A DNA stretch of 64,000 bases from an uncultured Methyloversatilis sp. GTDB taxonomy: Bacteria; Pseudomonadota; Gammaproteobacteria; Burkholderiales; Rhodocyclaceae. The stretch spans positions 468 through 64,467 of the forward strand of contig CAYZII010000003.1 in the NCBI GenBank assembly GCA_964478415.1. Reading direction: 5' to 3'. The translations under genes and the position numbers were made by a program. The first letter of the stretch is position 1, and each line of letters opens with the position of its first letter. Below are positions 94 through 62,981 of the stretch, piece after piece. The notes below the pieces were generated by a model. The model did not search any database. It saw only the letters and a program-made list of their open reading frames with translations, and was not told the DNA's origin.

Positions 94-978
94 ATGATCC
101 ATTGCGAAAACCTCTCGAAGTCTTTCCGTCGCGCGCGCGTGCTGGACGGCATCAATCTCGACATCACACTCGGGGAACGCATCGCGCTGATCGGCTCGAA
201 CGGCGCCGGCAAGACGACGCTGATCCGCTGCCTGCTCGGAGAATACATGCATGAGGGCAAGGTGACCATCGACGGCCGGGCGCCACGCACGGAGCGCACC
301 GCGGTGCTCGGCAAGATCGGCTTCGTGCCGCAACTGCCACCGCCATTGAAGATGCCGGTGGGCCAGTTGATCGAATTCTCCGCCCGGCTGTCCGGCGCTG
401 ACCCGAAACAGATCCAGGCGATCTCCGAAAGGCTCGGGCTACCCATCGATGCGATCCGCAGCCGGCCTTTCAACCGTCTCTCCGGCGGAATGAAACAGAA
501 GCTCTTGATCGCGATCGCGCTCGGCCGCAATGCCAAGCTCCTGATCATGGACGAGCCAGCCGCCAACCTCGACCCCGCGGCCCGGCGTATCTTCTTCGAG
601 CTCTTGGCCGAGCGTCAGGATGACGCGACGATGATCATCTCCAGTCACCGCATCGACGAAGTAGCCGCATTGGTCAACCGCGTGATCGAGATGGACATGG
701 GCCGGATCGTACTCGACGACAAGGTCGCCGATGACGTGTCTCTGACCGGTGTCTCCGCCTGCCGCATCGTCGTGCGACGCACCGATCCGGCGTTCGCCAA
801 GGCACTGGCCGGCTGGAAATTCACCAGCGATGCCGACGGCCTGATCTGGCAAGGCGAAGTCGCCGGCCCGGACCGCCTGCGTTTCCTGGGCATGGTTTCG
901 CGCTATGTCGCGCTGATCGCCGATCTTTCGCTGACGGAAAAAATCGGCGCTGGGGATGCGGCACGGAGGCTGCAATGA
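94..978 (+). CDS. nosF: ABC transporter ATP-binding protein, NosF-like
   Basis: 294-aa ORF with Walker A GSNGAGKT, ABC signature LSGGMKQK and Walker B LLIMDEP. 4-nt overlap with the downstream NosL-like gene. Confidence 0.8.
   Translation: MIHCENLSKSFRRARVLDGINLDITLGERIALIGSNGAGKTTLIRCLLGEYMHEGKVTIDGRAPRTERTAVLGKIGFVPQLPPPLKMPVGQLIEFSARLSGADPKQIQAISERLGLPIDAIRSRPFNRLSGGMKQKLLIAIALGRNAKLLIMDEPAANLDPAARRIFFELLAERQDDATMIISSHRIDEVAALVNRVIEMDMGRIVLDDKVADDVSLTGVSACRIVVRRTDPAFAKALAGWKFTSDADGLIWQGEVAGPDRLRFLGMVSRYVALIADLSLTEKIGAGDAARRLQ
937..964 (-). repeat. Dispersed repeat core, reverse orientation, at nosF 3' end
   Basis: Reverse complement GTGCCGCATCCCCAGCGCCGATTTTTTC, versus hand consensus GTGCCGTCCCGCCAGCGCCGAGTTTTC. 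Confidence 0.6.
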
Positions 979-2783: not shown

Positions 2784-3512
2784 ATGTCAGCCCCCCGCCA
2801 CGCGCTCGACGAAAGTTTTGGCCGCCACGCGGTGCCGCCGCAGGAGAGGCGCCACCGCATCCGGCGCATGTTCGACGCGATCGCGCCGCGTTACGACCTG
2901 ATGAACGACCTGATGAGCTTCGGCATCCACCGGCTGTGGAAACGCCGGCTGGCCAGTCGCTGTAAGGGCATGACCGGCTTCGTCGTCGATCTGGCGGGCG
3001 GCACCGGCGATGTCGCGCGGCGACTCGTGCGTGCCGACCGCATCGTCACCGTCTGCGATCCCGGCATCGAAATGATGAAAGTCGGTGCTGGAAAGACGGC
3101 ACCGATCCACTGGATCGCCGGCGAGGCCGAGGCGCTGCCCTTTGCGACCGGCAGCGTCGATCTGCTGACGATCTCGTTCGGCATCCGCAACGTCACCCAG
3201 CTTGCCGCGGCGCTTTCTGAGATCCATCGTGTAATCAAGCCCGGCGGACGCTTCGTCTGTCTCGAATTCTCGCGTCCGGCCTGGTGGCTGGCGCCGTTCT
3301 ACGATCTCTATTCGTGGCTGGTGATTCCGCGCCTCGGCGCCGCGGTGGCGCGCGCATCCGGCGCCTACCAGTATCTGGTCGAATCGATCCGGCGTTTTCC
3401 CGATCAGCGTGAGTTCGCCGATCTGCTCACCGCAGCCGGCTTTCGCGAGGTGCGTTGGGAAAATCTCTCATTCGGCATCGCCTGCCTGCATTTCGGAACC
3501 AAGGCCGCATGA
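2784..3512 (+). CDS. ubiE: Demethylmenaquinone/ubiquinone C-methyltransferase (UbiE/MenG family)
   Basis: Internal ATG 2784 of ORF 2421..3512. RMFDAIAPRYDLMNDLMSFGIHRLWKR plus SAM motif VVDLAGGTGD. The upstream part of the ORF overlaps the tlpA frame and is Arg-rich noise. Confidence 0.85.
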   Translation: MSAPRHALDESFGRHAVPPQERRHRIRRMFDAIAPRYDLMNDLMSFGIHRLWKRRLASRCKGMTGFVVDLAGGTGDVARRLVRADRIVTVCDPGIEMMKVGAGKTAPIHWIAGEAEALPFATGSVDLLTISFGIRNVTQLAAALSEIHRVIKPGGRFVCLEFSRPAWWLAPFYDLYSWLVIPRLGAAVARASGAYQYLVESIRRFPDQREFADLLTAAGFREVRWENLSFGIACLHFGTKAA

Positions 3513-5442: not shown

Positions 5443-5673
5443 ATGACCTCTTTCGATCGCATCACCATTAATCCCGCCATCATGAACGGTCAGCCCACTA
5501 TCCGCGGCATGCGCTTGACCGTCCGCCGCGTCGTCGAAGCGGTGGCGCTCTATCCCGACCGCGCCGAACTGTTACGCGAATATCCCGAGCTCGAAGAAGA
5601 AGATATTCGCCAGGCCTTGGCGTTTGCCGCGAGCAATCTCGCGGATGAAACGCTACCCCTGCTGGCGGCGTGA
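5443..5673 (+). CDS. DUF433-family antitoxin-like protein
   Basis: 76 aa. ITINPAIMNGQPTIRGMRLTVRRVVE is typical of DUF433. GTGA overlap with the downstream PIN-like gene. AAGGAG Shine-Dalgarno sequence upstream. Confidence 0.7.
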   Translation: MTSFDRITINPAIMNGQPTIRGMRLTVRRVVEAVALYPDRAELLREYPELEEEDIRQALAFAASNLADETLPLLAA

Positions 5674-6038
5674 TCTCGCTGCTTTTCGATCAGGGGTTGC
5701 CACGCTCCGCAGCGGTGGCGTTACGGGAGGCAGGATGGCTGGTTACGCATGTCGCCGAAATCGGACTATCCAAAGCTAGCGATTCTGCCATCATCGACTA
5801 TGCGCGCACCCACGGCTGCCATATCGTCACACTGGATGCCGATTTTCATGCACTGCTGGCGATCTCCGGCGCCCGTGCGCCTTCTGTGCTGCGGCTGCGT
5901 ATCGAAGGACTCAGAGCCACTGAACTTGCCGATCTGCTGAAACGTCTCTGGCCGCAAATCTCGGCGGCCATCAGCGCCGGCGCGCTCGTCACCGTGACGG
6001 AAAAACAAGTGCGCATCAAAGGCTTGCCGATCGCGTGA
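5670..6038 (+). CDS. DUF5615/PIN-like (Mut7-C-like) putative toxin
   Basis: 122 aa with GTG start. FDQGLPRSAAVALREAGW...IVTLDADFHALLA pattern. Paired with the DUF433 gene. Confidence 0.6.
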   Translation: MISLLFDQGLPRSAAVALREAGWLVTHVAEIGLSKASDSAIIDYARTHGCHIVTLDADFHALLAISGARAPSVLRLRIEGLRATELADLLKRLWPQISAAISAGALVTVTEKQVRIKGLPIA

Positions 6039-7111
6039 CCACGACCCTTCTCATTGCCGAGATCATTCCCTATCGCCTGCCGCTCAAGCGTCCCTGGGTC
6101 GGGGCGTCCGTGACGCTGACCGAGCGGCGCGGGGTGTTATTACGGCTCGTCGATGAGGACGGCCTGGCAGGCTGGGGCGATTGTGCGCCACTGCCCAGCC
6201 GCAGGGATCCGCAGGCGGTCATCGATGCGCTCGCCACCTGGTCGTGCCGTCCCGCCAGCGCCGAGTTTTCGAAGTGGCTCGGCGCCCGGCGGGACGATTT
6301 CTTTTCTGCCAGCGCCGAGTTTCAACATTTGCCTGCCGAAGCGCGCTGGGCGATCGAAACCGCGCTGGCGGATCTCGCCGCGCAGCGTGCCGGCCTGCCG
6401 CTGTGGCGGCATCTGGGCGGGACGTCGAATGAGGTCGAAGTCAATGCCGCGCTCGGTCCTCTCGACGAAGCATTGCCCGAGCGCCTCGTCGCCGCGCAGG
6501 CGCAAGGCTATCGCATCGGCAAGATCAAGGTGGGCCTGGCGCCTGTCGAAGAGGAGATCGCCCGCCTGCGCGCGCTGGATACGCCACTCTCGCTGCGTCT
6601 CGATGCCAATCGCGCATTCGACGATGATGCGGCGGAGCGTTTCCTGACGGCGCTCGCCGACCTGCCGATCGAGGCGGTCGAAGAGCCGTTTCAGCGGCCG
6701 TCGTTGGCAAAACTCGCCGCGCTGCAGGCGAGGCTCCCCTTCCCGCTCGCGCTCGATGAATCGCTGCCTGACTTTCCCCTCGCCGCAGTGATTGAAGCCC
6801 GCGCAGTACGTCGCCTGGTGCTGAAACCGGCGCGGCTGGGCGGTATCGCTGCGACGCTAGCGATCGCGCGCGAGGCGCAGGCGGCCGGCATCGAGGTCGT
6901 GCTCACCTCGGTAGTCGATTCGGCGGTCGGTGTCACTGCCGCCACCCATCTGGCCGCGGCACTCTCGCCCGATCTCACACATGGCCTGGGCACCAGTGCG
7001 TGGCTCGCGGAGGATGTCGCGCAGCCGCTGCCCATCCTCGGCGGTTCGATGAAACTGCCAGAGGCAGCGGGATTAGGTCTCACCCCGGCAACGGTTCGGG
7101 CCGGTGGATGA
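6035..7111 (+). CDS. menC: o-succinylbenzoate synthase (enolase superfamily)
   Basis: GTG 6035 overlaps the toxin stop. Motifs YRIGKIKVG, LRLDANRAF, VEEP. Carries the 83-nt repeat at 6244-6326 in frame. Confidence 0.8.
   Translation: MTTTLLIAEIIPYRLPLKRPWVGASVTLTERRGVLLRLVDEDGLAGWGDCAPLPSRRDPQAVIDALATWSCRPASAEFSKWLGARRDDFFSASAEFQHLPAEARWAIETALADLAAQRAGLPLWRHLGGTSNEVEVNAALGPLDEALPERLVAAQAQGYRIGKIKVGLAPVEEEIARLRALDTPLSLRLDANRAFDDDAAERFLTALADLPIEAVEEPFQRPSLAKLAALQARLPFPLALDESLPDFPLAAVIEARAVRRLVLKPARLGGIAATLAIAREAQAAGIEVVLTSVVDSAVGVTAATHLAAALSPDLTHGLGTSAWLAEDVAQPLPILGGSMKLPEAAGLGLTPATVRAGG
6244..6326 (+). repeat. 83-nt composite repeat element, in frame inside menC
   Basis: The core is followed by GGCGGGACG (6288-6296), complementary to CGTCCCGCC (6248-6256). 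GCCAGCGCCGAGTTT is repeated exactly 54 nt downstream (6254 and 6308). Confidence 0.85.
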
Positions 7112-11034: not shown

Positions 11035-11131
11035 CGGGGAAGGGTTTTTACCACAGCAGTGCATCGTCTTCGACGGTCCTGCCTTGATCTGTCTCATGGG
11101 CACACGCCGACCTGCTGAATAAAATCGGATT

Positions 11132-12328
11132 ATGTCCCTCCTGCACCACTGGCTTTCCCGCGCCGCCGCCGACCAACCTGCACTGATCCTGCCGGATGGT
11201 GCCACGCTCCGCTATGGCGATCTGGCCAAGCAGGCCGGAAAGACTGGCCTGCAAGCAATCGACGGCGATGCCGGCACACTCGCCCGCGGGCTGATCGAAA
11301 CCGCGCTCGGCGGCGGCACGGCCTTTCCCCTGCCGCCGACACTCGATGCTTCTCACCGCGACAGGCTGATCAGACTGGCCCGTGGCGCCACCGATCCGAA
11401 GCTGGCATTGATCATCGCCACCAGTGGCTCGACGGGGGAACCCAAAGCAGTGAAGCTTTCCTGGCGTGCGATCGCCGCAGGCGCCCGCATCAGCGCACGG
11501 GCAGTGGATCTATGCCCCGGCGATGCCTGGCTCGTCTGTCTGCCGCTCTTTTTCGTTGGCGGCGCGATGATTCTCTACCGTACCTTACGCGCCGGTGCCA
11601 CCGTCGTGGTGCAGGAAGGGTTCGATGTAGCCCGGGTGGCGGATGCACTCGTCGCGCAGCGCATCACCCATCTGTCGCTGGTGCCGGCGATGCTGGCGAA
11701 ACTGATCGAGTGTGCCATGCCGCCAGCGCCGAGTTCGAAATGTGTGCTGGTCGGCGGCCAGGCGCTCTCCCCGACACTGGCGGAAAAGGCACTTGCCGCC
11801 GGCTGGCCGCTCAGGCTGTCCTACGGGATGACCGAGACCTGCGCCACCGCGCTGATCGACGGTCGTCCCCTGCCCGGCGTGCGTGTGCGCCTGTCTGCGG
11901 CGGGCACACTCGAAATCGCCACACCGGCCCGGATGAAAGGTTACCTGGGAGGGTCGCCATCCGGCGAGTGGCTCACGACGCAGGATCTCGCGCAGATCGA
12001 TCCAGACGGCCGGGTGACGATCCTGGGCCGCGCTGACGAGATGCTGATCTCGGGCGGTGTGAATCTCCATCCGCTGGAGATCGAGGCCACGCTCTCGCGC
12101 TGTCCCGGCGTGCGCGAAGCCGGCGTCACCGGTTTGCCCGACCCGCTTTGGGGTGATCTGATCGCCTGCGCCTACGAGGGCGAGGCGCAGGAAGATGCCG
12201 TCGCCGACTGGTGTCGCGCCTGCCTGCCTTCCTCAAGGCGGCCTCGCCGGCTGCTGCGCGTTCCCCGTCTGCCGCGGCTGCCTTCCGGCAAACTGGATCG
12301 CCGCGCCCTACGGCGTCTTTGGTCATGA
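11132..12328 (+). CDS. menE: o-succinylbenzoate-CoA ligase (short AMP-binding enzyme)
   Basis: 398 aa with AMP-binding motif IIATSGSTGEPKAV. ATGA overlap with menF. Contains a repeat core at 11712. Confidence 0.75.
   Translation: MSLLHHWLSRAAADQPALILPDGATLRYGDLAKQAGKTGLQAIDGDAGTLARGLIETALGGGTAFPLPPTLDASHRDRLIRLARGATDPKLALIIATSGSTGEPKAVKLSWRAIAAGARISARAVDLCPGDAWLVCLPLFFVGGAMILYRTLRAGATVVVQEGFDVARVADALVAQRITHLSLVPAMLAKLIECAMPPAPSSKCVLVGGQALSPTLAEKALAAGWPLRLSYGMTETCATALIDGRPLPGVRVRLSAAGTLEIATPARMKGYLGGSPSGEWLTTQDLAQIDPDGRVTILGRADEMLISGGVNLHPLEIEATLSRCPGVREAGVTGLPDPLWGDLIACAYEGEAQEDAVADWCRACLPSSRRPRRLLRVPRLPRLPSGKLDRRALRRLWS
11712..11740 (+). repeat. Dispersed repeat core inside menE
   Basis: GTGCCATGCCGCCAGCGCCGAGTTCGAAA. 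Translated as CAMPPAPSSK. Confidence 0.65.
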
Positions 12329-13638
12329 TCGACTGGCATAGGCTCGCCGAGGCACTTGCTTCACTCGCCGGAAGCGCCCAGCCGGCGCGTTTGCTGAGCG
12401 TCAGCTGCGCACTGCCGCGCTGGCCGGCGGTCACGCCAGTCGGTGAATGGTGTCACTGGCAACGACCCGAGCAAGGCATGCGGCTTTTCGCTGTCGGCTG
12501 TGCCGCCTTCGTCGAAAGCGCAGGCGCGGGGCGTTTCGCGGCGCTCGCCGCCGCACAGCGTGGACTGGCCAATGCTTGGCAGGCCGACGCGACCAGTTGC
12601 AAGCGTGCTTTCGTCGGCTTCGCTTTCACGCCGGAAGGCGGCGCACCCTTCCCGAATGCCCGCCTCTGGGTACCCGAACTGTTGCTTTGCGAAGAGCACG
12701 GGCGGATCGCCCTGACACTGAGCTGTGCGGCAGAACAAGCGGGCAGGGCAGTGCCGCGTTGGCGCAAGCTGTGGCGGGAGTTGACCACGGCATGTGCCGT
12801 CCCGCGAGCGCCGATTTTCCGCATCCAGCGCAATCCCGTTGCCGATCAGGCTTTTCTGGCGCGCGGCCAGGCCGCACTCGCGGCGATCAGACAAGGCGCT
12901 GTCGACAAACTGGTGCTGACCCGTACGTTGCGGGTAACGATGGACCAGCCCATCATGCCGACAGCGTTGATCGGGGAACTGGCACGACAACATCCCGCTT
13001 GTGCGGTGTTCGGCCTCGGCAACGGGCGGAGGAGTTTCCTCGGCGCCTCGCCGGAAACCCTGCTCGCGATCGACAAACAAACTGTAATGGTCGACGCACT
13101 CGCCGGCACGGCCTGGCAGGACACGGTGCAAACGCTCGAAGACGAAAAGAACCGCCGCGAACACGACTGTGTCGCCACCGCGATCATCGAGGCGCTTGCC
13201 GGAGTGTGCAGCGAGATCGATCTGCCGGCAAATCCAGAAGTGATGCAGCTTTCCGGGCTGAGCCACCTGCGTCGCCGTGTCCGGGCGTGCCGTCTGACCG
13301 CAACGAACGCATTCGATCTCCTTGCGCGGCTGCACCCGACCCCAGCCGTCGGCGGCACGCCCACCGCTGACGCGCTCGATTGGCTGGCCGGCCACGGCGA
13401 TACCCGCGCCGCCTGGTATACGGGCGGCTTCGGCTGGATCGACACCAGTGGTGATTGCGACATCGCCGTCGCGTTGCGCTGTGGGCTGTTCGAAGGCTGC
13501 GAAGCGACGCTCTATGCCGGCGCAGGCTTCGTCGCTGGTTCCGATCCAAAGCAGGAGCTCGCCGAAACCGAGGCCAAACTCACAGCGCTGCTGAATGCCT
13601 TGGCGACGCTCGGTCGCCCCAACCGGGCCGTCGCATGA
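12325..13638 (+). CDS. menF: Isochorismate synthase
   Basis: ATG 12325 overlaps the menE stop. Chorismate-binding motifs LHPTPAVGGTP, YAGAGFVAGSDP. Confidence 0.85.
   Translation: MIDWHRLAEALASLAGSAQPARLLSVSCALPRWPAVTPVGEWCHWQRPEQGMRLFAVGCAAFVESAGAGRFAALAAAQRGLANAWQADATSCKRAFVGFAFTPEGGAPFPNARLWVPELLLCEEHGRIALTLSCAAEQAGRAVPRWRKLWRELTTACAVPRAPIFRIQRNPVADQAFLARGQAALAAIRQGAVDKLVLTRTLRVTMDQPIMPTALIGELARQHPACAVFGLGNGRRSFLGASPETLLAIDKQTVMVDALAGTAWQDTVQTLEDEKNRREHDCVATAIIEALAGVCSEIDLPANPEVMQLSGLSHLRRRVRACRLTATNAFDLLARLHPTPAVGGTPTADALDWLAGHGDTRAAWYTGGFGWIDTSGDCDIAVALRCGLFEGCEATLYAGAGFVAGSDPKQELAETEAKLTALLNALATLGRPNRAVA
12794..12821 (+). repeat. Dispersed repeat core inside menF
   Basis: GTGCCGTCCCGCGAGCGCCGATTTTCCG. 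Translated as CAVPRAPIFR. Confidence 0.7.
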
Positions 13639-15347
13639 GTACCGGGGCGCGCAACCTCGCCTGGGCCGATGCCCTGATCGCCGCGCTTGCGGCCAGTGGT
13701 CTGCGTCATGTCGTGCTCTCCCCGGGCGCACGCTCTGCGCCACTCGCCGTCGCCTGTCTGCGGCGGCCGGAAATCATCTGCCATGTCATCAACGACGAGC
13801 GCGCCGCCGGCTTCTTTGCAGTGGGACTGGGCAAGGCAAGCGGCCAGCCTGCGCTGGTGCTGACCACCTCCGGCACCGCCGCGGCGAATCTGCTGCCGGC
13901 GATCGTCGAAGCGAATCTCTCCCACACCCCGCTGATCGCCGTCACTGCCGACCGTCCGCCGGAAATGCTCGGCTGGGGGGCGAACCAGACCATCGACCAG
14001 GTGAAGCTCTTTGGTGATCAGGTGCGCGCCTTTCATACCCTGCCGCCGCCGGACGAGGCGTTCCCACCACGATTTCTGACGACGTTGGCCGCCCGGCTGG
14101 TCGAAACGGCGCTGTTTCCCCACGCCGGGCCGGTGCATCTGAACGTCCCGTTCCGGGAACCCTTGCTGCCCGAGGTCTTACCCGCGCCGCCCGCGTTACC
14201 ACCCGCGCTCGAACTGCATCCCCAGCAGCCAGCACTGCCATCTGACCTCGATACGGTCGCCGCCCGTCTCCAGGCCCGTCCCGGCGTCATCCTCTGCGGG
14301 GAAGCGCGTTATCCCGCCGGCTTTGCCGCCGCCGTGACCCGGCTCGCCGCGCGGCTCGAAGCGCCGATCATCGCCGAAGCCCTGTCCAATCTGCGTTTTG
14401 GCGCTCATGACAAATCACGCATCAGCGCTGATGCAGCGCGTTTCCTGCGCCACACCGCGCCGCCCGCCCCGGCCTGGGTGCTGCGCTTCGGCGCCTTTCC
14501 CGTCTCGCGCACGCTCGAACGCTGGCTGGCGGATCTGGCCGAAACCGAACACCTGCTCGTCGCGCCGCCCGGCAGTTGGCCGGACCCACTGCATCACAGC
14601 GACACACTGTTGCGCGGTGACCCTTTGGACATCGCCGCAGCCCTGGCCGAGAGGTGCCGTCCCGCCAGCGCCGAATTTTCGGAGCGACACGGCGGCCGAC
14701 GGGACATTGTCATTTCTGCCGGTGCCGAATTCCGTCTGGCCTGGCAACGTGCCGAAGCTGGCGTCACGGCTGCCGAAGACCTGCCTTTCTTCGAAGGGAC
14801 GGTCGCGCACCGGCTTCTCGCTGCGCTGCCCGCCGGCGCGCATTGCTTCATCGGGAACTCGCTGGCGATCCGCGCCGTCGATGCCTACTCTGGAAAGAGC
14901 GACAAGCCCCTCACCCTTTACGGCAACCGTGGCGCATCGGGAATCGATGGCAATCTCGCCACCGCGGCAGGAATCGCCGCAGCCAGTGGCGCGCCGATCG
15001 CCCTGCTCGTCGGTGACCTAAGCCTGCTGCACGATTGCGCCAGCCTCGCGCTGCTGAGGGAAAGAAACGCGCTGATCGTCGTGCTCGATAACGGCGGCGG
15101 CGGCATCTTCGACCATCTGCCCTTCGCCCGGATGCTGCCCCCGGCACTGCTCGAACGCGGCTTTATTGCCAAACCCCACGCGGACTTCGCCGCCCTGGCC
15201 CGCGCCTTCGATCTCGCCTATGCGGAAGCGGCCGATCTGCAGGCGCTCGATGCAGTGCTTGCCAAGGCGCTCCAGCACGGCGGCACCTGGCTGCTGCGCG
15301 TCGTGATCGACCGCGGCGCGAGCCGCGCCGGTTTCACTGGTGCTTGA
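13635..15347 (+). CDS. menD: SEPHCHC synthase (ThDP-dependent)
   Basis: ATG 13635 overlaps the menF stop. N-terminus NLAWADALIAALAASGLRHVVLSPGARSAPLA. ThDP motif GNRGASGIDG. Carries the 83-nt repeat at 14654-14736. Confidence 0.9.
   Translation: MSTGARNLAWADALIAALAASGLRHVVLSPGARSAPLAVACLRRPEIICHVINDERAAGFFAVGLGKASGQPALVLTTSGTAAANLLPAIVEANLSHTPLIAVTADRPPEMLGWGANQTIDQVKLFGDQVRAFHTLPPPDEAFPPRFLTTLAARLVETALFPHAGPVHLNVPFREPLLPEVLPAPPALPPALELHPQQPALPSDLDTVAARLQARPGVILCGEARYPAGFAAAVTRLAARLEAPIIAEALSNLRFGAHDKSRISADAARFLRHTAPPAPAWVLRFGAFPVSRTLERWLADLAETEHLLVAPPGSWPDPLHHSDTLLRGDPLDIAAALAERCRPASAEFSERHGGRRDIVISAGAEFRLAWQRAEAGVTAAEDLPFFEGTVAHRLLAALPAGAHCFIGNSLAIRAVDAYSGKSDKPLTLYGNRGASGIDGNLATAAGIAAASGAPIALLVGDLSLLHDCASLALLRERNALIVVLDNGGGGIFDHLPFARMLPPALLERGFIAKPHADFAALARAFDLAYAEAADLQALDAVLAKALQHGGTWLLRVVIDRGASRAGFTGA
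14654..14736 (+). repeat. 83-nt composite repeat element, in frame inside menD
   Basis: Same length and architecture as 6244-6326. 66/83 identical by hand alignment; the first 21 nt are identical. Second half-core lies 54 nt downstream. Confidence 0.85.
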
Positions 15348-17421
15348 GCAAAGCCAGGCACGCTTCGCCCGGCAGCGGTTTGCCAAACAGATAGCCTTGC
15401 AGAACGTCACACCCCAGGCGGACGAGAAAATCGCGCTGCGCTTGTGTCTCGACGCCTTCAGCCACCACCCGCAGCCCGAGATTTTTCGCCAGCGCAATGG
15501 TCGCCGAGCAAATCGCCGCATCGTTCGCATCGCTTTCCAGATCGCAGACGAAAGTACGGTCGATTTTGAGCACCTGGATCGGCAGGCGCTTCAGATAGGC
15601 GAGCGACGAATAGCCGGTACCGAAATCGTCGATGGCGAGCGCCACGCCCAGGTCGCGCAACGCCCCGAGCTGCCGCACGGCTTCTTCGGGATCGGCCATA
15701 GCCACGGACTCGGTGATTTCGAGTTCCAGATCGCCGGCCGCAAGACCATGTCGCTCGAGCGCGGCGAGAATCTCCTTGCCCAGACCGGCATCCCGCAACT
15801 GGTGTGCGGACAGATTGAGCGCAAGACGGACGTTTGAAACGCCGGCGGCCCGCCAGGCGGCGAACTGCCGGCAGCCCTCTTCGAGCACCCATTGCCCAAG
15901 CTGCCCGATCAGACCGGCTTCTTCGGCGATAGTGACGAAGCGCTCCGGAGAAATCCAGCCGCGTTGCGGATGCTGCCAGCGCACTAGCGCCTCGAAAGCG
16001 ACGATCCGGCCGGTACACGCCTCGATCTGCGGCTGGAAATGCAAGTGCAGCGCCCCTTTGTCCAGCGCAACGCGCAAATCGCGCTCGAGTGCCAGGCGCT
16101 CGGCCGCGGCTTTGGTGAGGTCCTCGGTGAAGAAATGCAGCTGGTTGCGGCCATGCTCTTTCGCGTAATACATCGCGGTGTCGGCGTGTTTGAGCAGCGT
16201 GCCAGCATCCTGGCCGTCGCGCGGGAAGAGGCTGATGCCGATGCTCGGCGTCGAATGAAGCAGCTGGCCGTCGAGCCGATACGGTCTGGCGAGCGCCTCG
16301 AGGAGCTTCGTGCTGGCATTGAGCGCATGAATTTCCGCCTCCAGGCCGGTGAGCACGACGACGAATTCGTCACCCCCGAGGCGCGCGACGATGTCCGATT
16401 CACGCACACAGGCCTGCAGCCGTCGGCCGACTTCGACGAGCAGCTGATCGCCGACATGATGGCCGAGCGTATCGTTGATATTCTTGAAGCGGTCCATGTC
16501 GATCAGCACCAGCGCCACCTGTTTGCCATCGCGCCGCGCCGTGGCGAGCGCCTGTTCGAGCCGGCTACGCAGGCTGTAGCGATTGTCGAGCCCGGTCAGC
16601 GCATCGTGATAGGCGAGATGCTCGATATGGCGCAGCATGGCCTGGCGCTCGAGCGCACGCTGGTAACCCTGCCTTCCCACCCAACCGATGCCCACCAGCC
16701 CCACCAGCCAGATCACACCATGACCGATGCCGAGATCGATTGCGGTCGCTCGTATGCGTTGGTAATAGGGTTCGAGTGGCAGATTCACGCCGGTGGCGCC
16801 GCGCATGTCGCCAACCTGATAGCCGAGGATGCCGTGACAGCGCACGCAGACTTCCTCCATGAACCAGGCCTTCAGATAGCGTAGATAAGGCTTGCCATCA
16901 ATTGCGGCAATTTCCCAGACCTCATTCTTGATGCCGAGTTCGAATTCTTCGAGCTGTTTCTTCTCCCAAGCATCAGGGGCATTGATCGGATTGAGAAAGC
17001 GCAAGCCGACGATGCGGCCGCGTGCTCCGCCGGTCATCGCCGCATAGTCGTCCATCATCTCGCGCACCATCATCGCCGGCGCGCGTAAGGTGAGCTTCAT
17101 GCCGTCGGTCGTCACCACATCGCGTTCCGGAATATGATTCAACAGCGGAGAAGGCTGCGCCTGCGGTGTCACGCGCACATAGACGCCGGAGTGTTTCATC
17201 GCCCAGCACCGGAAAGCCATGTCCTTGTCGCGCACCGCTCGCGCTTCGGCATAGGCCATCTCGAGCGTCTGCCGCTCATGACTGCGTAATCCCCAATACA
17301 AGGACGCGGCGACGATCAGCGTCCATAACACTGCCCCGGCCACGGCCAGACGCACCGCAGTCTTCGGGTTTTCTTTGGGAGAGAGGCTTTTCTCAGGCAT
17401 CGAGGTATCGTATTGGCGCAT
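15334..17421 (-). CDS. DUF3365 (CxxCH haem-type sensor)-GGDEF-EAL protein
   Basis: CVRCHG motif in a periplasmic-like N-domain. RLGGDEFVVVL, FEALVRW, DDFGTGYSSL. Start uncertain (ATG 17421 or 17400). Confidence 0.85.
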   Translation of the reverse strand: MRQYDTSMPEKSLSPKENPKTAVRLAVAGAVLWTLIVAASLYWGLRSHERQTLEMAYAEARAVRDKDMAFRCWAMKHSGVYVRVTPQAQPSPLLNHIPERDVVTTDGMKLTLRAPAMMVREMMDDYAAMTGGARGRIVGLRFLNPINAPDAWEKKQLEEFELGIKNEVWEIAAIDGKPYLRYLKAWFMEEVCVRCHGILGYQVGDMRGATGVNLPLEPYYQRIRATAIDLGIGHGVIWLVGLVGIGWVGRQGYQRALERQAMLRHIEHLAYHDALTGLDNRYSLRSRLEQALATARRDGKQVALVLIDMDRFKNINDTLGHHVGDQLLVEVGRRLQACVRESDIVARLGGDEFVVVLTGLEAEIHALNASTKLLEALARPYRLDGQLLHSTPSIGISLFPRDGQDAGTLLKHADTAMYYAKEHGRNQLHFFTEDLTKAAAERLALERDLRVALDKGALHLHFQPQIEACTGRIVAFEALVRWQHPQRGWISPERFVTIAEEAGLIGQLGQWVLEEGCRQFAAWRAAGVSNVRLALNLSAHQLRDAGLGKEILAALERHGLAAGDLELEITESVAMADPEEAVRQLGALRDLGVALAIDDFGTGYSSLAYLKRLPIQVLKIDRTFVCDLESDANDAAICSATIALAKNLGLRVVAEGVETQAQRDFLVRLGCDVLQGYLFGKPLPGEACLALLKHQ

Positions 17422-17434
17422 CGCCATCTTAACC

Positions 17435-17448
17435 TTGACTTTCATCAA
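17435..17448. promoter_or_regulatory. FNR/Dnr/NnrR-type box TTGAC-TTTC-ATCAA
   Basis: 9/10 match to TTGAT-N4-ATCAA. Lies in the divergent region between the DUF3365-GGDEF-EAL gene and the nosD paralog. Confidence 0.55.
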
Positions 17449-17482
17449 CGCCAAAAGGGGCGTCCTGCGGTCAAATTGTGGC

Positions 17483-22253: not shown

Positions 22254-24119
22254 ATGGAAGAATGGATCGGCAGCCTCTGGGATCGCTGGATCAGGGAGGT
22301 GGCGCGGCGCGACTATCCGGCCGCGGCCGTCGAACTGAAAGATCTCGAAAAAACGCTCGGCGTGATTTTCCGTGCGCTCGGTGGCGATCCGGGCTTGCGC
22401 ATCGCCGCGGCGGCGGATCAGGCGCATGGCGCACGGCGGCGGTTTTTGCAGCGCATCGCTGGCATCCACGATCGTGCTGCCCATGCCGCCCTCGATCACG
22501 AAACCCTGCGCCTGCCCCCGCGACTTGCCGTCCTGCCAACGCCGAGTTTGAACCGCGACCTCTACGTCTGGCTCGTGGCGCTGGCGGGAAGCAGCGGCCC
22601 GGCGCTGGAGCGATTCGCGCATGAATGGATCGTGCAGAACCAGTTTGCGGTCTGGGCCACCTTGCAACGCTATCCCGGCCTGAAGATGCGCTACCAGCGG
22701 CTCGTCGAGGCCCATCTGGCGGAACGGATCGCCCCGGAAAAGATGCCGCCCGATGAAGCGGCGCAGGAACGGGCAGTGCGGCAGGCGCTCATCGGTCCGG
22801 GAAGTGTCACAGAACTGCCCCCTTTGCGGCGTGCAAAGGCAAAAGCGCTGCAGCCGGTGCCGCTATGGCTCTACCCTGCACCCCCGGCTGAGATGAAGCG
22901 ACGCAGGGGGAGCCCTACCGCGCACGAAACCGAAGACGCGGAACAGCCGAAGGAGCAGCAGGTCGAGAACAAGCGCTACCAGGCCGAGCGTGGCGAGATG
23001 CCCGAGAACGAGTCGCCGCTGATCCTGTTGTTTCGCGCCGAAAGCTTGCTCTCTTGGGCCGAGTATCTGCGCGTCAACCGGGCGCTCGACGAAGACGAAA
23101 ACCCTGATGCCGGCCGCGCCGCCGAGACGCTCGACAAGCTCACGCTGGCGGAGGGCGAGCAGCGCGTCGCCTCGAAGGTGCGCTTCGATCTCGACCTGCC
23201 GGCGGCGGCCGAGGACGATCTGCCGCTCGGGCCGGGCATTCCGCTGCCCGAGTGGGATTGGAAGCGCCGCGTGATGAAACCCAACTTCTGCCGCCTGCAG
23301 ACGATGGTGGCACGCGAGAGTACGCCGCAGCCGCTGCCCGAACACCTGCGGCGACACGCCAGGAAGCTCGAGAATCAGTTCGCCGCGCTGGCGCCGGTGC
23401 GGCGCTGGCAAAAGGCCCAGCCGGAAGGCGCGGAGATCGACATCGACGCCTGTGTGCGCATCGCCGCCGATCGCCTGGCGGGCTTTCATTTTTCCGGGGC
23501 GGGCGCCTACCTGAACCATCGTCCGACTGAACGCGACCTCGCCTGTCTGGTGCTCGCCGATCTGTCGCTGTCTACCGACGCCTATGCCAATGACGCACAA
23601 AAGGTGATCGACGTGATCCGCGACAGCCTGATGCTGTTCGGCGAGGCACTGTCGGCGACCGGCGATGCCTTCGCCTTTTACGGCTTCTCGTCGCTGAAAA
23701 GGAGCTTCGTGCGCTTCCATGAGATCAAGCCCTTCGACCGGCCACTCGATGCGGTGGCGCGCGGGCGCATCGCCGCATTGAAACCCGGTTACTACACTCG
23801 CATGGGCGCGGCAGTGCGCCGCAGCACCCAGCTCCTCAACCAGCAGCCGGCCAACCGTCGTCTGCTCTTGATCCTCTCCGACGGCAAGCCGCACGACATC
23901 GATCTCTACGAAGGCCGTTACGGTATCGAGGACACGCGCAAGGCGCTCATCGAAGCGCGCGAGGAGGGCATCAAGCCCTTCTGTGTCACGATCGACCGCG
24001 AAGGCGCCGGCTATCTGCCACACCTCTTTGGACCGGCTGGCTACACGGTCGTCAGGAAGCCCGAAGACCTGCCCGACCGGCTGCCGCTGCTTTATGCCCA
24101 ATTGACGGGGAATGCGTGA
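22254..24119 (+). CDS. norD: NorD-type von Willebrand factor A protein (NorQ partner)
   Basis: 621 aa. C-terminal VWA domain with MIDAS-like ADLSLSTD. ILSDGKPHD. Adjacent to norQ. Confidence 0.85.
   Translation: MEEWIGSLWDRWIREVARRDYPAAAVELKDLEKTLGVIFRALGGDPGLRIAAAADQAHGARRRFLQRIAGIHDRAAHAALDHETLRLPPRLAVLPTPSLNRDLYVWLVALAGSSGPALERFAHEWIVQNQFAVWATLQRYPGLKMRYQRLVEAHLAERIAPEKMPPDEAAQERAVRQALIGPGSVTELPPLRRAKAKALQPVPLWLYPAPPAEMKRRRGSPTAHETEDAEQPKEQQVENKRYQAERGEMPENESPLILLFRAESLLSWAEYLRVNRALDEDENPDAGRAAETLDKLTLAEGEQRVASKVRFDLDLPAAAEDDLPLGPGIPLPEWDWKRRVMKPNFCRLQTMVARESTPQPLPEHLRRHARKLENQFAALAPVRRWQKAQPEGAEIDIDACVRIAADRLAGFHFSGAGAYLNHRPTERDLACLVLADLSLSTDAYANDAQKVIDVIRDSLMLFGEALSATGDAFAFYGFSSLKRSFVRFHEIKPFDRPLDAVARGRIAALKPGYYTRMGAAVRRSTQLLNQQPANRRLLLILSDGKPHDIDLYEGRYGIEDTRKALIEAREEGIKPFCVTIDREGAGYLPHLFGPAGYTVVRKPEDLPDRLPLLYAQLTGNA
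22525..22553 (+). repeat. Dispersed repeat core inside norD
   Basis: TTGCCGTCCTGCCAACGCCGAGTTTGAAC. Translated as LAVLPTPSLN. Confidence 0.65.
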
Positions 24120-24222: not shown

Positions 24223-24273
24223 GTGCCATGCCATCAGCGCCGAGTTTCGTCCCGTCTCCGCTGCGATGGCATG
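24223..24273 (+). repeat. Dispersed repeat, intergenic hairpin-forming copy
   Basis: GTGCCATGCCATCAGCGCCGAGTTTCG... CATGCCATC (24227-24235) pairs with GATGGCATG (24265-24273). Confidence 0.7.
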
Positions 24274-28445: not shown

Positions 28446-29568
28446 TTGACTTCATTCCCGCCTGCATTGCTCGCACTCGCCGACGGGACGGTATTTCGGG
28501 GCAAGGGCATCGGCGCCGAAGGCAGCAGCGTCGGTGAAGTGGTCTTCAATACCGCGATGACTGGCTATCAGGAGATTCTCACCGATCCCTCCTACACGCG
28601 CCAGATCGTCACCCTCACCTACCCGCACATCGGCAACACCGGCATCAATCGCGAAGACGTTGAATCCGGCCGCATCTATGCCGCCGGCCTGGTGATTCGC
28701 AACCTGCCGCCGCTCCCCTCGAATTTCCGCTCCGAACAAACGCTCAGCGCCTATCTGCAGAATGAAAACGTCGTCGCCATCGCCGACATCGACACCCGTA
28801 AGCTCACCCGCATCCTGCGCGAGAAAGGCGCGCAGGCAGGCTGTCTGATGTGCGGCGGTAGCCTCGACGCCGACGAGGCGATCGAGAAGGCACGCGCTTT
28901 CCCTGGGCTGGCGGGCATGGACCTCGCGAAGGTTGTATCGACCCGCCAACCTTATCCGTGGTCCGAGGGGGAATGGAAACTCGGCGTTGGCTATACGGCA
29001 CCCGCACAAGACAAATTTCATGTCGTCGCCTACGATTTCGGTGTCAAACGCAACATCCTGCGCATGCTCGCCAGCCGCGGCTGCCGACTCACCGTGGTGC
29101 CGGCGCAAACGCCGGCGCGTGATGTGCTGGCGATGAATCCGGATGGGGTGTTATTCTCGAACGGTCCCGGCGATCCGGAACCCTGCGACTATGCGATTGC
29201 CGCAATCCGCGAGCTGCTCGACGAGAAGCTTCCCGCCTTTGGCATTTGTCTCGGCCATCAGCTGATGGGCCTGGCTGCCGGCGCCAGGACGCTGAAAATG
29301 AAATTCGGCCATCATGGCGCGAACCATCCGGTCAAGGACCTCGATACCGGCCAGGTGCTGATCACCAGTCAGAACCACGGCTTCGCGGTCGATCCTGCCA
29401 CCCTGCCTGCCAATGTGCGCGTCACCCATGTCTCGCTGTTCGATGGCTCCTTGCAAGGCATGGCCTGGAATGACCGTCCGGCGTTGTGTTTCCAGGGTCA
29501 CCCCGAGGCGAGCCCCGGCCCCCATGACGTCGCCTATCTGTTCGATCGTTTCATCGGGATGATGAAAG

Positions 29569-44711: not shown

Positions 44712-44740
44712 GTGCCGTCTAGCCAGCGCCGAATTTCAGC
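44712..44740 (+). repeat. Dispersed repeat core at purC stop / prlC upstream junction
   Basis: GTGCCGTCTAGCCAGCGCCGAATTTCAGC. The TCA at 44736-44738 is the purC stop codon on the minus strand. Confidence 0.7.
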
Positions 44741-51815: not shown

Positions 51816-54041
51816 GAGGCCGGCCACCCAGGCCTGACCGAGCGACAGGCCACCGTCGTTAGGCGGTACTGCCTGCGCCTCGATCAGTGCGATGCCGTGG
51901 CCCGCAAGCCCGCTGCGCAATGCTGCACTCAGCAGGCGGTTCAGCAGGCAGCCGCCGGCGGCGGCGACGGTGCGGATGCCAGTGCGTGCGGCAAAGGCGC
52001 TGAGCCAGTCAGTCAGGGCGGCAGCGAACGTCGCATGGAACAGCGCCGCACCGGCGCTGGCATCCTCGCAGTCTTCCAGCCAGCCGAACAACGTCAGGAG
52101 ATCGAGACCGCCCTCGGCAGTGAGTCGCCATCCTCCTTCCAGCGGGGCAGCCGGTCCATGCCGCGCAGCCAGCCCCTCGAGCAGCATCGCGGCCTGCCCC
52201 TCGAAACTGATACGCCGACGTACTCCCAACAATCCCGCCGCGGCGTCGAACAGCCGGCCCGCGCTCGCGGTCGGCGGACAATGGAAGTCGCGCTCGAGCA
52301 TCTGAGCCACGGTTCCCGCCGCCGGTTCGTCAGCAAACCGCCGCACGATCTCCTCTCCCCGACCCAGGCAGTGCAGCACGGCAGCTGCCATGCGCCAAGG
52401 CTCGCGGGCCGCGACATCGCCTCCCGGCAGCGGCAAAGGTCGCAGATGTGCAAGGCGCTCGCAATCCGCACCATCGACGCGTAACAGCTCGCCGCCCCAG
52501 GCCGTGCCATCCGTGCCGAGCCCGACGCCGTCGAGCGCCAGTCCCAAGACCGGCGACGTGATGCGATGTTCGGCACAGACCGCAGCGATATGCGCATGGT
52601 GGTGCTGCACCCCAAGTGCCGGAATGCCGTGTTCCGCTGCAAAAGCCGCGGCGAAACGCGTTGAAAAGAAATCTGGGTGCAGGTCGTGGGCGACCGCCTC
52701 GGGCCGCACCTCGAGGATGTGCAACAGATGTGCGACGGTCTCCTCGAAGAAGCCGCAGGCGGCGGCATTGTCGAGATCGCCGACATGCTGCGAGACGAAA
52801 GCCTCTTCCCCGCGCGTGACACAGATCGTGTTCTTGAACCAGCCGCCGACGGCGAGCACCGGTGGCAACGGCTGTGGCAGCCGGATCGCCCGGGGCACAT
52901 AGCCGCGCGCACGACGGATGAAGCCCCCGCCAACACTGGCGCGCCGCACCGAATCGTCGCAACGGATCACGATGTCCCGATCGTGCAGCAAAAACGCATC
53001 GGCGATACCGGCAAGCCGCTCCCGGGCTTCCTCGTTGCCGATCACCAGCGGCTCGCCATGCGGATTGGCGCTGGTCATCACCAGCGCCATCTGCGGCGCG
53101 TCGTGAAAGAGCAGATACTGGATCGGGGTGACCGGCAGCATCAGCCCGATCTCGGCGAGCCCTGGCGCTACGCCGGGCAATTCGTTTTTCTTCTCCAGCA
53201 AGACGATCGGCCGCTCCGGCGAGGTCAAGAGTGCCGCCTCGCCAGCGCAGAGTTTTGCATGACGTGCGGCTTGCCCGAGATCCCCGACCATCACCGCGAA
53301 GGGCTTTTCCTCGCGCTGCTTGCGCGCACGCAAGGCCGCGACGACGGCGGCGTTCGTCGCATCGCAGGCGAGATGAAAACCGCCCAGTCCTTTGATCGCG
53401 ACGATCCGGCCGGCTTGCAATAGCTCGAGCGCCGTTGCGATCGGATCGCCGGCCAAAGGTCGGCCCGAAGCATCGCAAAGCGTCAAACGCGGCCCGCACT
53501 GCGGACAGCAGATCGTCTCGGCATGGAAGCGTCTGTCGCGTGGATCACGATATTCCCGCTCACAGTCCGGGCAGAGCGGGAATACCGCCATGCTGGTCTG
53601 CGGCCGGTCATAGGGCAGCCGCCGCGTGATCGTGTAACGTGGCCCGCAGTGGGTGCAGGTGATGAACGGATGACGGTAGCGGCGATTGGCGGGATCGAAC
53701 AGTTCGGCAAGGCAGTCGCTGCAAGTCGCCGTGTCATGACCGATCGCGGTGACGATCCGTCCGCCGGCACTCTCGATGATGCGGAATTCGCGCAGGTGGA
53801 GCGGCTCGCTGGATGTCACCTCCACCGCATCGATGCGTGCCAGCGGTGGCGCTGCGCTTATCAGCCGCGCAATGAAGGTCTGCAACGCCGCATCTGCGCC
53901 TTCGAGATGGATCTCGACGCCCGCGGCGTCGTTCCTCACCCAGCCGGAGAGTCCGAGTTCCTGTGCCAGCCGCCACACGTAAGGACGAAAACCGACCCCT
54001 TGCACGACGCCCCTGACACGTATGCGTATCGCATCAACCAC
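51783..54041 (-). CDS. hypF: [NiFe] hydrogenase maturation carbamoyltransferase HypF
   Basis: GTG 54041. Acylphosphatase [12 protein letters not shown]. Zinc fingers [23 protein letters not shown]. YrdC and Kae1-like domains. Confidence 0.93.
53231..53258 (+). repeat. Dispersed repeat core inside hypF (antisense to gene)
   Basis: GTGCCGCCTCGCCAGCGCAGAGTTTTGC, about 23/27 to the consensus by hand count. Confidence 0.6.
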
Positions 54042-55263: not shown

Positions 55264-55731
55264 TTACTCGCCCAAGCCAAGGAGCTTGCGGCGTGTCCCG
55301 GAAACGGGCGAGCCATCCTCGGCCTGTGGCTGCACTGCCGGCATGTCGAGTGCGATCAGGCAGGCACGCGCGGTGGCCAGTGCGGTCTCCTGATCGGCGA
55401 AAGGTTTCATGTCGGAAATCAACGGGCAGGCAAGATAGTCGCCGAGCCCCTCTTCGTGGTTCGGCAAAAAGGCGAAAGTGCCAGCCGGATACTCGCGGAA
55501 AACACGTTCATGCGGTGCTGGAACCGGCCACTCTGCGACCGCCGGCAACAGCAGCAGCTGGATGCCCCAAGGGGTGACCAGCACACCACGCCAGTCGTCG
55601 CCCTGGCGCGCGAAACCGACCACGGCGACGGTAAGCCTGGGATTCAGAAACGGCAATCCGGCCATACGCTCGGTCTCGATACGCCGGAAGGTGGCTTCGA
55701 TCAGCGGGCCGGGGTTTTCAACGTGAAACAT
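55264..55731 (-). CDS. hybE: [NiFe] hydrogenase assembly chaperone HybE-like
   Basis: Start taken at ATG 55731 (MFHVENPGPLIEATFRRIETERMAGLPFLNP...). The longer ORF start at 55779 would overlap hyaD. Confidence 0.7.
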   Translation of the reverse strand: MFHVENPGPLIEATFRRIETERMAGLPFLNPRLTVAVVGFARQGDDWRGVLVTPWGIQLLLLPAVAEWPVPAPHERVFREYPAGTFAFLPNHEEGLGDYLACPLISDMKPFADQETALATARACLIALDMPAVQPQAEDGSPVSGTRRKLLGLGE

Positions 55732-55758
55732 GCCGTTCTGCCAGCGCCGATTTTCAGC
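55730..55758 (+). repeat. Dispersed repeat core filling the hyaD-hybE junction
   Basis: ATGCCGTTCTGCCAGCGCCGATTTTCAGC. Contains the hybE start (CAT 55729-55731) and the hyaD stop (TCA 55754-55756). Confidence 0.7.
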
Positions 55759-56230: not shown

Positions 56231-56236
56231 GCCGAC

Positions 56237-62936: not shown

Positions 62937-62981
62937 GCCGAAATTCTGCGCTGGTAGGACGGCACAGTGACGGGGATACGC

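Follow-up and report, generated by a model that had tools for sequence, protein, structure and literature searches.

The segment shared by menD and menC in an uncultured Methyloversatilis genome probably belongs to a dispersed DNA repeat family of Rhodocyclaceae

How did two unrelated enzymes of menaquinone biosynthesis, MenC and MenD, come to carry similar DNA in frame? The question arose with a stretch of 64,000 nucleotides (nt) from an uncultured Methyloversatilis sp. of the Rhodocyclaceae (assembly GCA_964478415.1, contig CAYZII010000003.1, positions 468 to 64,467), which we call the window and analyzed over its whole length. A preliminary description of this DNA had proposed that a discrete 83-nt element that codes for a peptide is present in both genes. 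We find that the segment in each gene consists of two parts, a 24-nt motif that is dispersed through this and related genomes and a 54-nt module that follows it. On grounds of structure and evolution, we consider it quite probable that a genome-wide DNA repeat, rather than protein homology, wrote the same peptide into the two enzymes.

The segments in menD and menC consist of a motif and a module

We compared the segment at 14654-14736 in menD with that at 6244-6326 in menC without gaps. The two are identical at 66 of 83 positions, the first 21 nt are the same, and both lie in phase 0 of their open reading frames (ORFs), with CRPASAEFSERHGGRRDIVISAGAEFR and CRPASAEFSKWLGARRDDFFSASAEFQ as the translations. 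In all of these points the preliminary description was reproduced. A peptide stretch that spans the insert region of MenC and MenD is AEFSERHGGRRDIVISAGAEFR. In the 54 nt that come after the motif, the two genes share 40 of 54 positions. Among 20,000 pairs of 54-mers drawn at random from the window there were 14.4 ± 3.4 identities and 30 at most, and the likeness is therefore not due to chance.

The host genes encode different kinds of enzyme. The product of menD has the Pfam domains TPP_enzyme_N and TPP_enzyme_C, is 100% identical to a database protein (P0001), has homologues named MenD and matches the MenD structure 2x7j in the PDB, an enzyme of the thiamine diphosphate type, with E = 2.7e-88. 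The product of menC has the domains MR_MLE_N and MR_MLE_C of the enolase superfamily, and its homologues are named o-succinylbenzoate synthase.

Compared with its closest orthologue (P0002, 81% identity), MenD has exactly 18 extra residues, SERHGGRRDIVISAGAEF. The DNA for these residues is the 54-nt module, which is found neither in P0002 nor in most other MenD orthologues. MenC also has 18 residues, SKWLGARRDDFFSASAEF, that most MenC proteins do not have. Because 18 residues are extra in both enzymes, the insertion is 54 nt long and not 83 nt. The natural unit in menD is the 24-nt motif (14655-14678) with the 54-nt module (14679-14732), and the 83-nt segment adds to it a few flanking bases that are not shared.

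The motif has a different history from the module. When 60 MenD and 70 MenC homologues were aligned, nearly every clade member had the peptide C-R-P-A-[SG]-A-[DE]-F at one and the same position. Distant MenD proteins have unrelated residues at this position, and in distant MenC proteins the whole loop is missing. These alignments show that the motif is ancestral within the clade in both menD and menC, and the copy in menD predates the divergence of these genera. The preliminary description had allowed that the segments might be ancestral to their protein families and had suggested ortholog alignments as a check. This is the case for the motif within the clade; distant MenC and MenD proteins are without it, and the 54 nt are an addition. 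The identity of 66/83 and the common codon phase would fit a discrete 83-nt module that codes for a peptide and entered two genes of the pathway in frame. However, 83 cannot be divided by three, both sites had the first 24 nt ancestrally, and the same DNA turns up in other frames, on the opposite strand, in spacers and in many genes outside the pathway. We regard such an insertion as very improbable.

The motif is dispersed through the window and through related genomes

A query made from the head of the element found five copies in the window. With the 24-nt pattern TGCCGTCCNGCCAGCGCCGARTTT there were 10 copies at three or fewer mismatches and none in shuffles that preserve dinucleotides. With three weaker copies the total is 10-13 in 64 kb where 0 are expected, and the density in this genome is about one per 5-6 kb. 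Copies in the men cluster are in menC, menE, menF and menD, all on the sense strand, and the frames differ. The link to a single pathway that had been drawn from menC and menD did not hold, because at least 10 copies in the window are in unrelated genes and spacers (Table 1). Regulation specific to the men pathway was rejected for the same reason, the motif being present in many unrelated genes.

The consensus of the motif is TGCCGTCYYGCCAGCGCCGANTTT(T), 24-25 nt long and not palindromic. When the first 20 nt were searched for in about 185,000 species genomes, at least 118 stretches matched, nearly all of them from Rhodocyclaceae/Sterolibacteriaceae. The listed matches include Sulfuritalea, Sulfurisoma, 'Methyloversatilis' metagenome-assembled genomes (MAGs), Azonexus, Propionivibrio and one complete chromosome of 3.05 Mb. 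In a position matrix of 232 copies the motif reads T-G-C-C-G-T-C-Y-Y-G-C-C-A-G-C-G-C-C-G-A-(C)-T-T-T-(T). It has sharp edges, and the flanks of these copies held no information over 40 nt upstream or 80 nt downstream. The CTTT(T) tail is conserved though it lies outside the search pattern, and the two halves of the motif are essentially always coupled. The TTT tail was present in 105 of 130 hits of the Rhodocyclaceae type; isolated hits in Deinococcus, Paraburkholderia, Lysobacterales and Bryobacterales are without it and were dismissed as chance matches. A stretch of 21.7 kb from Sulfuricystis multivorans has five copies. Extrapolation from this stretch, the window and the 118 or more matching stretches suggests that there are several hundred copies per genome.

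Two other groups of matches were seen. Single full motifs with a CTTT or GTTT tail are present in thermophilic betaproteobacteria outside the Rhodocyclaceae, namely Tepidicella xavieri (L006), Tepidimonas thermarum (L067) and a Tepidiphilus MAG (L081). These could have come by horizontal transfer from Sulfuricystis-type neighbours or could reflect a wider distribution at low density. The exact motif was also found in 39 stretches of viral contigs, which may be prophage, host fragments or genuine phage copies. One of the viral contigs (IMGVR_UViG_3300009945_000063, L143) has four motifs in 1.4 kb at about 880-2240, each in a repeat of about 300-600 nt with conserved flanks.

We asked how 237 copies lie relative to genes, using a crude ORF map based on the GC content of third codon positions. 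By this map 73 copies are sense, 78 are antisense and 86 are intergenic or unassigned, with about 64% inside ORFs. All six frames are used with a strong bias, and the two frames that encode the Arg-rich peptides PSRQRRL and SRRWRDG are avoided. In the sense orientation, AVPPAPTF is read from 43 copies, CRPASADF from 24 and PSRQRRL from six. In the antisense orientation, KVGAGGTA is read from 55, KSALAGR from 18 and SRRWRDG from five. Orientation had no relation to local GC skew (73/164), and on the chromosome OW818671.1 copies on the plus and minus strands are intermixed. Nearly equal sense and antisense counts, with no polarity of skew or replichore, rule out a signal that acts in the sense orientation or at the level of RNA, as well as a replication-polar signal of the type of Chi or the FtsK-orienting polar sequences (KOPS).

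The idea of a peptide-coding module also failed here, because both the motif and the 54-nt module are read in other frames (as in RecB, described below) and on the opposite strand (as in the E2 linker), and both also lie in intergenic DNA. By contrast, these copies bear out the preliminary view that protein homology is unable to explain the shared sequence and that a DNA element lies beneath it.

Constraint on the motif acts on DNA

To compare orthologous copies we used syntenic men clusters from S. multivorans (AP018718, L119), a MAG (JBFMHO01, L120) and an ENA contig (L121), leaving aside the comparison of L119 with L120, which are close to each other. Between the window and these three clusters the menD motif is 88-96% identical and its flanks 34-69%. 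Over all pairs compared, the 24-mer in menD is 88-96% identical and the flanking 90 nt 34-73%, and in menC the values are 79-92% compared to 58-79% for the flanks. In frame 1 the codons CGT, which makes up 18% of Arg codons in the window, and TTT, which makes up 19% of Phe codons, are fixed across orthologous copies, as are CCC and AGC. Since minor codons are fixed at synonymous positions, it is the DNA that is constrained, and conservation of the peptide follows from this.

An AlphaFold2 model of MenD had a pLDDT of 89 overall and a pTM of 0.92. Between helices 330-340 and 362-375, at residues 341-360, the pLDDT fell to 65 and 54; these residues take in the motif peptide and the greater part of the insert. 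This stretch also aligns poorly to solved structures (Bacillus subtilis MenD). The model predicts that the site in MenD is a permissive loop between domains. Conservation of the peptide in many orthologues of both enzymes might have meant that CRPASA[DE]F is a functional peptide, either convergent or inherited in MenC and MenD. However, it is in a loop of low confidence that more distant homologues lack, its synonymous sites have fixed minor codons, and the identical 24-mer occurs antisense, in other frames and between genes. A protein-level explanation is thus extremely improbable.

A second explanation for constraint on DNA is that the motif is one site in a chromosomal array bound by a protein for nucleoid organization, segregation or repair, with the modules as an incidental by-product of mutation. 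The sharp boundaries, the purifying constraint on DNA, the independence of orientation and the conservation across the clade are all as such an array would have. On the other hand, parS, matS, SBS, KOPS and Chi sites are short, palindromic or replication-polar, whereas the motif is 24 nt long, non-palindromic and without polarity, and binding sites are rarely conserved uniformly across 24 positions. We therefore judge an array of this type to be improbable.

The 54-nt module forms a hairpin with the motif and varies in number

We aligned the menD unit in register with 18 other units from five other genomes. In every case a full motif immediately precedes the module on its 5' side, and the last 15-17 nt of the motif are repeated at the end of the module. 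Its four parts, CCGAAACGAGGC, GGCGCCCGGCGGGACG, TCTTCATTTCC and GCCAGCGCCGACTTT, are a variable loop, an inverted arm, a T-rich spacer and the motif tail. In 18 of 19 units the 16-nt arm shows no variation, whereas loop and spacer vary. The arm is a conserved but imperfect complement of motif positions 4-18, and their pairing gives stems of 9 bp and 5-8 bp around a 1x2 internal loop that is fixed. Every arm has a motif core just upstream. Apart from menD, the hairpins have folding energies of -34 to -41 kcal/mol compared to about -27 to -31 ± 3 kcal/mol for shuffled sequences.

The number of units differs between related genomes. In S. multivorans there is one in menD and two in nnrS. The MAG L120 has three in menC, three in menE and none in menD, and another MAG (L007) has one in recB. 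A scan of metagenomes for the order motif tail, loop and arm added at least 12 further stretches, mostly from genome Ga0209172. All host sites confirmed with Pfam are between or after domains. In an E2 acyltransferase the module is antisense in the linker between the lipoyl and E3-binding domains, where it reads KVGAGGIEHVPPGAASPR (KVGAGG...). In RecB it is in the tether between the helicase and nuclease domains and reads AVPPAPTFRSEVAPGGTSHIPSAPTF in frame 2 (AVPPAPTF...PSAPTF), and in PcnB it is in the C-terminal tail. Another host is a small membrane protein (L122) with a weak VTT/DedA match below the Pfam cut-off, and there are intergenic modules in L123 and L126.

Units are 54 nt long in all confirmed coding contexts, with a 57-nt variant in L125, L131 and L132. 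Lengths of 53 and 56 nt, which are not multiples of three, are found only at sites without a convincing ORF. Arrays have one to three units, and the modules are related by common descent. Units in the same array are identical or nearly so and those at different loci differ mainly in the loop, which indicates dispersal followed by local tandem amplification. When the part of the module outside the motif was used as query, only one further module (in L007) was found in 844 kb of other related genomes that have about 230 motifs, so the module is restricted to certain lineages. It is enriched in the Sulfuricystis-like lineage, and parsimony over about 60 MenD and 70 MenC orthologues favours sporadic gains. 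We excluded an assembly artefact because independent assemblies, and the complete genome of S. multivorans, a cultured organism, have the same architecture.

A different insert was seen at the same point in menD of L121 (11021-11125). It is in frame, 81 nt long and unrelated to the module, encodes the 27 residues ISPPHSQTRLAAPHGGEVGLERPGADF and ends in a re-duplicated motif tail. A similar peptide is present in MenC from another genome (P0127), and P0003 is also listed for this insert. A second type of insert at the same motif point suggests that motif sites are hot spots for events that bring in an insert together with a repeated tail.

Several known repeats resemble the module. According to the passages of PMC10969869 on Ogata et al. 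2000 and 2002, Rickettsia palindromic elements (RPEs) are hairpin repeats that lie in frame in unrelated metabolic genes, where they add a peptide to the protein at sites compatible with its fold, and are also found in non-coding DNA. The module is like them in being an in-frame hairpin repeat in unrelated genes, and the host sites in MenC, MenD, MenE, the RecB tether, the E2 linker and the PcnB tail are permissive ones. In the same passages RPEs are self-contained palindromes of about 100-150 bp, belong to Rickettsia only and are not described as tied to a short motif already present at the target (PMC10969869). The module differs in that it is 54 (or 57) nt long, a third of the size of an RPE, needs the 24-nt motif on its 5' side for the hairpin, re-duplicates the motif tail, forms tandem arrays and belongs to Rhodocyclaceae. 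As in intragenic minisatellites and the variable-number tandem repeats (VNTRs) built of mycobacterial interspersed repetitive units (MIRUs), the tandem units are in frame, are 50-60 nt long and number zero, one, two or three between related genomes; some units are, as in the MIRU-VNTR type, exactly between a stop and a start codon. Ordinary VNTRs are specific to one locus, whereas the 54-nt unit recurs at many unrelated loci and always beside a dispersed motif. Ends of miniature inverted-repeat transposable elements or insertion sequences (ISs) were rejected, since the flanks of the 232 copies are without information, terminal inverted repeats and target-site duplications were not found, and at the module ends the motif tail is repeated directly, not inverted.

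A further comparison is with repetitive extragenic palindromic (REP) sequences. These are known from gamma- and betaproteobacteria, are palindromic and almost exclusively extragenic, are poorly conserved in position between genera and are linked to REP-associated tyrosine transposases (RAYTs). Like REPs, their bacterial interspersed mosaic elements (BIMEs) and REP doublets forming hairpins (REPINs), the family described here has dispersed short repeats, clusters of alternating orientation, specific linkers, imperfect hairpins and arrays of variable number. One could suppose that the unit is a mobile hairpin of about 53 nt (motif, loop and arm), or a motif-module-tail unit of 78 nt, moved by a RAYT or another HUH/Y1 transposase, and that single motifs are remnants left when recombination between direct repeats deleted 54 nt. 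The invariant arm, an imperfect complement with its fixed internal loop, would agree with this, and so would the BIME-like arrays of alternating orientation, the enrichment of modules in particular lineages and the fact that collapse between 17-nt direct repeats would regenerate exactly one full motif.

However, more than 95% of copies are single and have no hairpin partner, and inverted partners are no more common downstream (20/230) than upstream (14/230). The hairpin is therefore a minority feature, and we rejected it as the general unit. Single motifs keep their orthologous positions from genus to genus and have changed less than the adjoining module, the opposite of what would be expected of dead remnants. 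The single motif is also non-palindromic and mostly intragenic, with the share inside ORFs given above, whereas REPs are extragenic. We found no transposase in the men neighbourhood, and the sporadic module gains favoured by parsimony are a further point against remnants. A REP-like or REPIN-like origin is in our judgment unlikely.

The module in menD has decayed

The unit in menD is the most decayed of the set, with 39 of 54 positions identical to the family consensus. Its arm has two substitutions within the otherwise invariant 15-nt core GGCGCCCGGCGGGAC, and the second motif tail, GCCGGTGCCGAATTC, has three changes. The 6-bp stem GTCCCG/CGGGAC that had been noted at this site is present, but it does not amount to a significant fold. 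As DNA, the menD unit had a folding energy of -16.9 kcal/mol compared to -15.1 ± 2.1 for shuffles (z = -0.83), and as RNA -29.0 compared to -27.1 ± 3.2. By contrast, the menC unit had a DNA folding energy of -23.7 kcal/mol with z = -3.81. The folding check that had been suggested for the element thus gave a fold beyond shuffles in menC and none in menD, as DNA or as RNA. A search of 5500-16000 on either strand found no Rfam match at E <= 1, and a structured RNA was rejected.

At the menD locus the motif is maintained as a perfect match while the adjoining module drifts. We also considered recent copying from menC to menD. This was rejected, since the two modules in the window match each other (29/39) no better than they match units from other genomes. 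They are independent members of the family.

Candidate processes that maintain the motif and spread the module

These data support the idea, which we hold to be likely, that the motif and the module form two layers and that both layers come from a DNA-level repeat system rather than from protein evolution. In the first layer, the motif would be kept by a genome-wide, sequence-specific DNA process. The likeliest process of this kind may be molecular drive similar to that of uptake signals, in which DNA with the motif is preferentially taken up and recombined, and the next likeliest may be a protein that binds or processes specific DNA sequences.

We ranked uptake-like drive first because orientation, location, frame bias, the poorly conserved positions in proteins, sharing across the family with dialects, and occasional inverted pairs match those of uptake sequences. 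DNA uptake sequences have been reported only in Neisseriaceae and Pasteurellaceae (bioRxiv 10.1101/2025.10.24.684340). The DNA uptake sequence (DUS) and uptake signal sequence (USS) of these families resemble the motif in being short, non-palindromic, sharply defined and present in both orientations and in coding and intergenic DNA, and their high copy number is what extrapolation suggests for the motif (PMC2817400; bioRxiv 10.1101/2025.10.24.684340). They also resemble it in a frame bias toward benign peptides and in a preference for poorly conserved positions of proteins (Findlay and Redfield 2009, PMC2817400). In location the motif agrees with them, its sites being in loops and linkers, in both orientations, in coding and intergenic DNA and rarely in the Arg-rich frames.

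Like DUS and USS, the motif is shared by a whole family with variation that resembles dialects. At position 21 every copy in the window has G, A or T and never C, whereas about 80% of other Rhodocyclaceae copies have C and S. multivorans mixes G and C. The motif also shares the heptamer TGCCGTC with the Neisseria AT-DUS, which may be a coincidence. A few inverted pairs of motifs with T-runs form long hairpins at L107 5036-5110, L008 2785-2830, L038 4132-4180 and L030 321-372. Those in L107 and L008 have flanks with runs of A or T and look like bidirectional intrinsic terminators, as is the case for inverted DUS pairs in Neisseria. Overall, inverted partners are not enriched in the counts given above.

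Several observations weigh against an uptake signal or against other parts of this account. DUS and USS have a short core of about 9-12 nt, whereas the motif has 24 nt, about 40 bits and 24-25 conserved positions. Its density of about one per 5 kb is 4-5 times below the roughly one per kb of uptake sequences, most copies lie outside terminators, and the 54-nt hairpin arrays have no counterpart in DUS or USS. Conservation that is nearly uniform over 24 positions looks like the copying of a template and less like a site bound by a protein. The constrained, imperfect arm is a better fit to a structure recognized by an enzyme of the REP/RAYT or IS200 type than to passive slippage, and 15-24 nt of homology is short for gene conversion that depends on RecA. 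In addition, the division of copies into coding and intergenic rests on a crude map. With these points in mind, we put forward only tentatively that the motif is a DNA uptake signal. We are similarly hesitant about its place as a third, independently evolved family of uptake-enhancing sequences, which would be the first beyond Neisseriaceae and Pasteurellaceae and would far exceed the others in length. Full-text searches of the literature gave no earlier account of this motif, nor of repeats or uptake sequences in these taxa.

If the motif is an uptake signal, competent cells would prefer DNA that bears it by way of a specific receptor (ComP or ComN), and it would mark DNA as 'self' for natural transformation in Rhodocyclaceae of the Sulfuricystis/Sulfuritalea type. 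Drive would then have written CRPASADF, AVPPAPTF and KVGAGGTA into hundreds of proteins, and the 54-nt hairpin arrays would be a new by-product that adds blocks of 18 residues to enzyme loops. In the second layer, recombination or gene conversion that starts from motif repeats may carry modules to new motif sites, or an enzyme that recognizes the hairpin may do so. An arm that is invariant yet imperfect favours some recognition by protein. Slipped-strand mispairing at the direct repeats would then make arrays longer or shorter, and coding regions would keep only lengths that preserve the frame. Modules can persist in genes because 54 nt are 18 codons and the motif sites are permissive loops, linkers and tails. 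By this account the menD module would be an old one that is decaying, its arm and second tail mutated and its hairpin lost.

Few systems are known in which DNA signals override codon choice and write peptides into proteins, namely USS and DUS in two families and RPEs in Rickettsia. The motif shows this behaviour in a third group of environmental importance, the Rhodocyclaceae that cycle sulfur, hydrogen and nitrate. It is unusual in having two tiers, a deeply conserved 24-mer in enzyme loops and a lineage-specific hairpin module that amplifies in tandem and lengthens linkers in steps of 18 residues. An uptake signal of this type would extend what is known of the range and form of these signals, and S. 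multivorans would be a cultured organism in which to test it. Should the motif instead be the substrate of an enzyme, it would define a new class of repeats that coding regions tolerate. The motif accounts for 'mystery' peptides that recur, and for length polymorphisms, among the annotated proteins of these genomes. It could serve as a lineage marker, and it poses a hazard for binning and assembly.

Copies and neighbouring genes in the window

The positions of the motif copies, the modules and their host genes are collected in Table 1.

Table 1. Motif copies, modules and associated genes in the window (positions are those of the window).
Feature	Position	Strand	Remarks
menD, 2-succinyl-5-enolpyruvyl-6-hydroxy-3-cyclohexene-1-carboxylate (SEPHCHC) synthase	13635..15347	+	start inferred from 570-residue database protein P0001
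Complete motif in menD, TGCCGTCCCGCCAGCGCCGAATTT	14655..14678	+	in frame, CRPASAEF, MenD residues 341-348; 0 mismatches to family consensus
54-nt module in menD, SERHGGRRDIVISAGAEF	14679..14732	+	18 codons; decayed
Loop of menD module	14679-14690	+
Inverted arm of menD module, GGCGGCCGACGGGACA	14691-14706	+
Spacer of menD module	14707-14717	+
Re-duplicated motif tail of menD module, GCCGGTGCCGAATTC	14718-14732	+
menC-like o-succinylbenzoate synthase	6035..7111	+	start inferred from 358-residue protein P0121
Complete motif in menC	6245..6268	+	in frame, CRPASAEF; ancestral within clade
54-nt module in menC	6269..6322	+	well preserved; 9 + 9 bp hairpin with motif
Motif in menE	11713..11736	+	other frame (CAMPPAPSS); single; orthologous L120 site has three 54-nt modules
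Motif in menF (isochorismate synthase)	12795..12818	+	other frame; orthologous L121 copy at 9155
Weaker motif, 3 mismatches	940..963	-	antisense, close to end of ABC ATPase gene; orthologous L120 copy at 5030
Weaker motif, 2 mismatches	3078..3101	-	orthologous L121 copy at 3415-3438 (-), antisense in gene for UbiE/MenG-type methyltransferase of menaquinone cluster
Motif in VWA-domain gene	22526..22549	+	24/24 identical to orthologous S. multivorans site
Degenerate (weaker) motif in spacer	24224..24247	+	between VWA-domain and radical-SAM genes (24120-24500)
Motif in carA	28977..29000	-	antisense
Intergenic motif between two minus-strand genes	44713..44736	+	abuts stop codon of upstream gene
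Motif in hypF	53232..53255	+	antisense
Motif at hycI/hybE junction	55731..55754	+	genes on opposite strand
hycI	55754-56236	-
hybE	55264-55842	-
Motif just upstream of ATG of PAS histidine kinase gene	62941..62964	-	gene on same strand
GGDEF-EAL gene	7080-9464	-
GGDEF-EAL gene	15334-17586	-

The weaker copy that has two mismatches is kept in position in L121, and with it five genes of the men cluster have the motif. The flank downstream of the degenerate copy in the spacer between the VWA-domain and radical-SAM genes matches the 5' region of nnrS in S. multivorans, where there are two modules; from this match, the spacer may retain only a remnant of nnrS.

Two copies meet the ends of genes. 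In the intergenic copy between two minus-strand genes, the overlap with the stop codon at 44736 is by TTTCA, which is TGA on the other strand. At the junction of hycI and hybE, the gene strand reads TGA-AAATCGGCGCTGGCAGAACGGC-ATG, in which TGA is the hycI stop and the ATG directly after the motif may be the start of hybE. Both codons appear to overlap the ends of the motif, which recalls MIRU-type repeats that bridge the genes of an operon.

The two large GGDEF-EAL genes lie among the men genes; one is PAS/HAMP/LapD-like and one is Tll0287-like. Their interleaving with the men genes is kept in S. multivorans and in L120.

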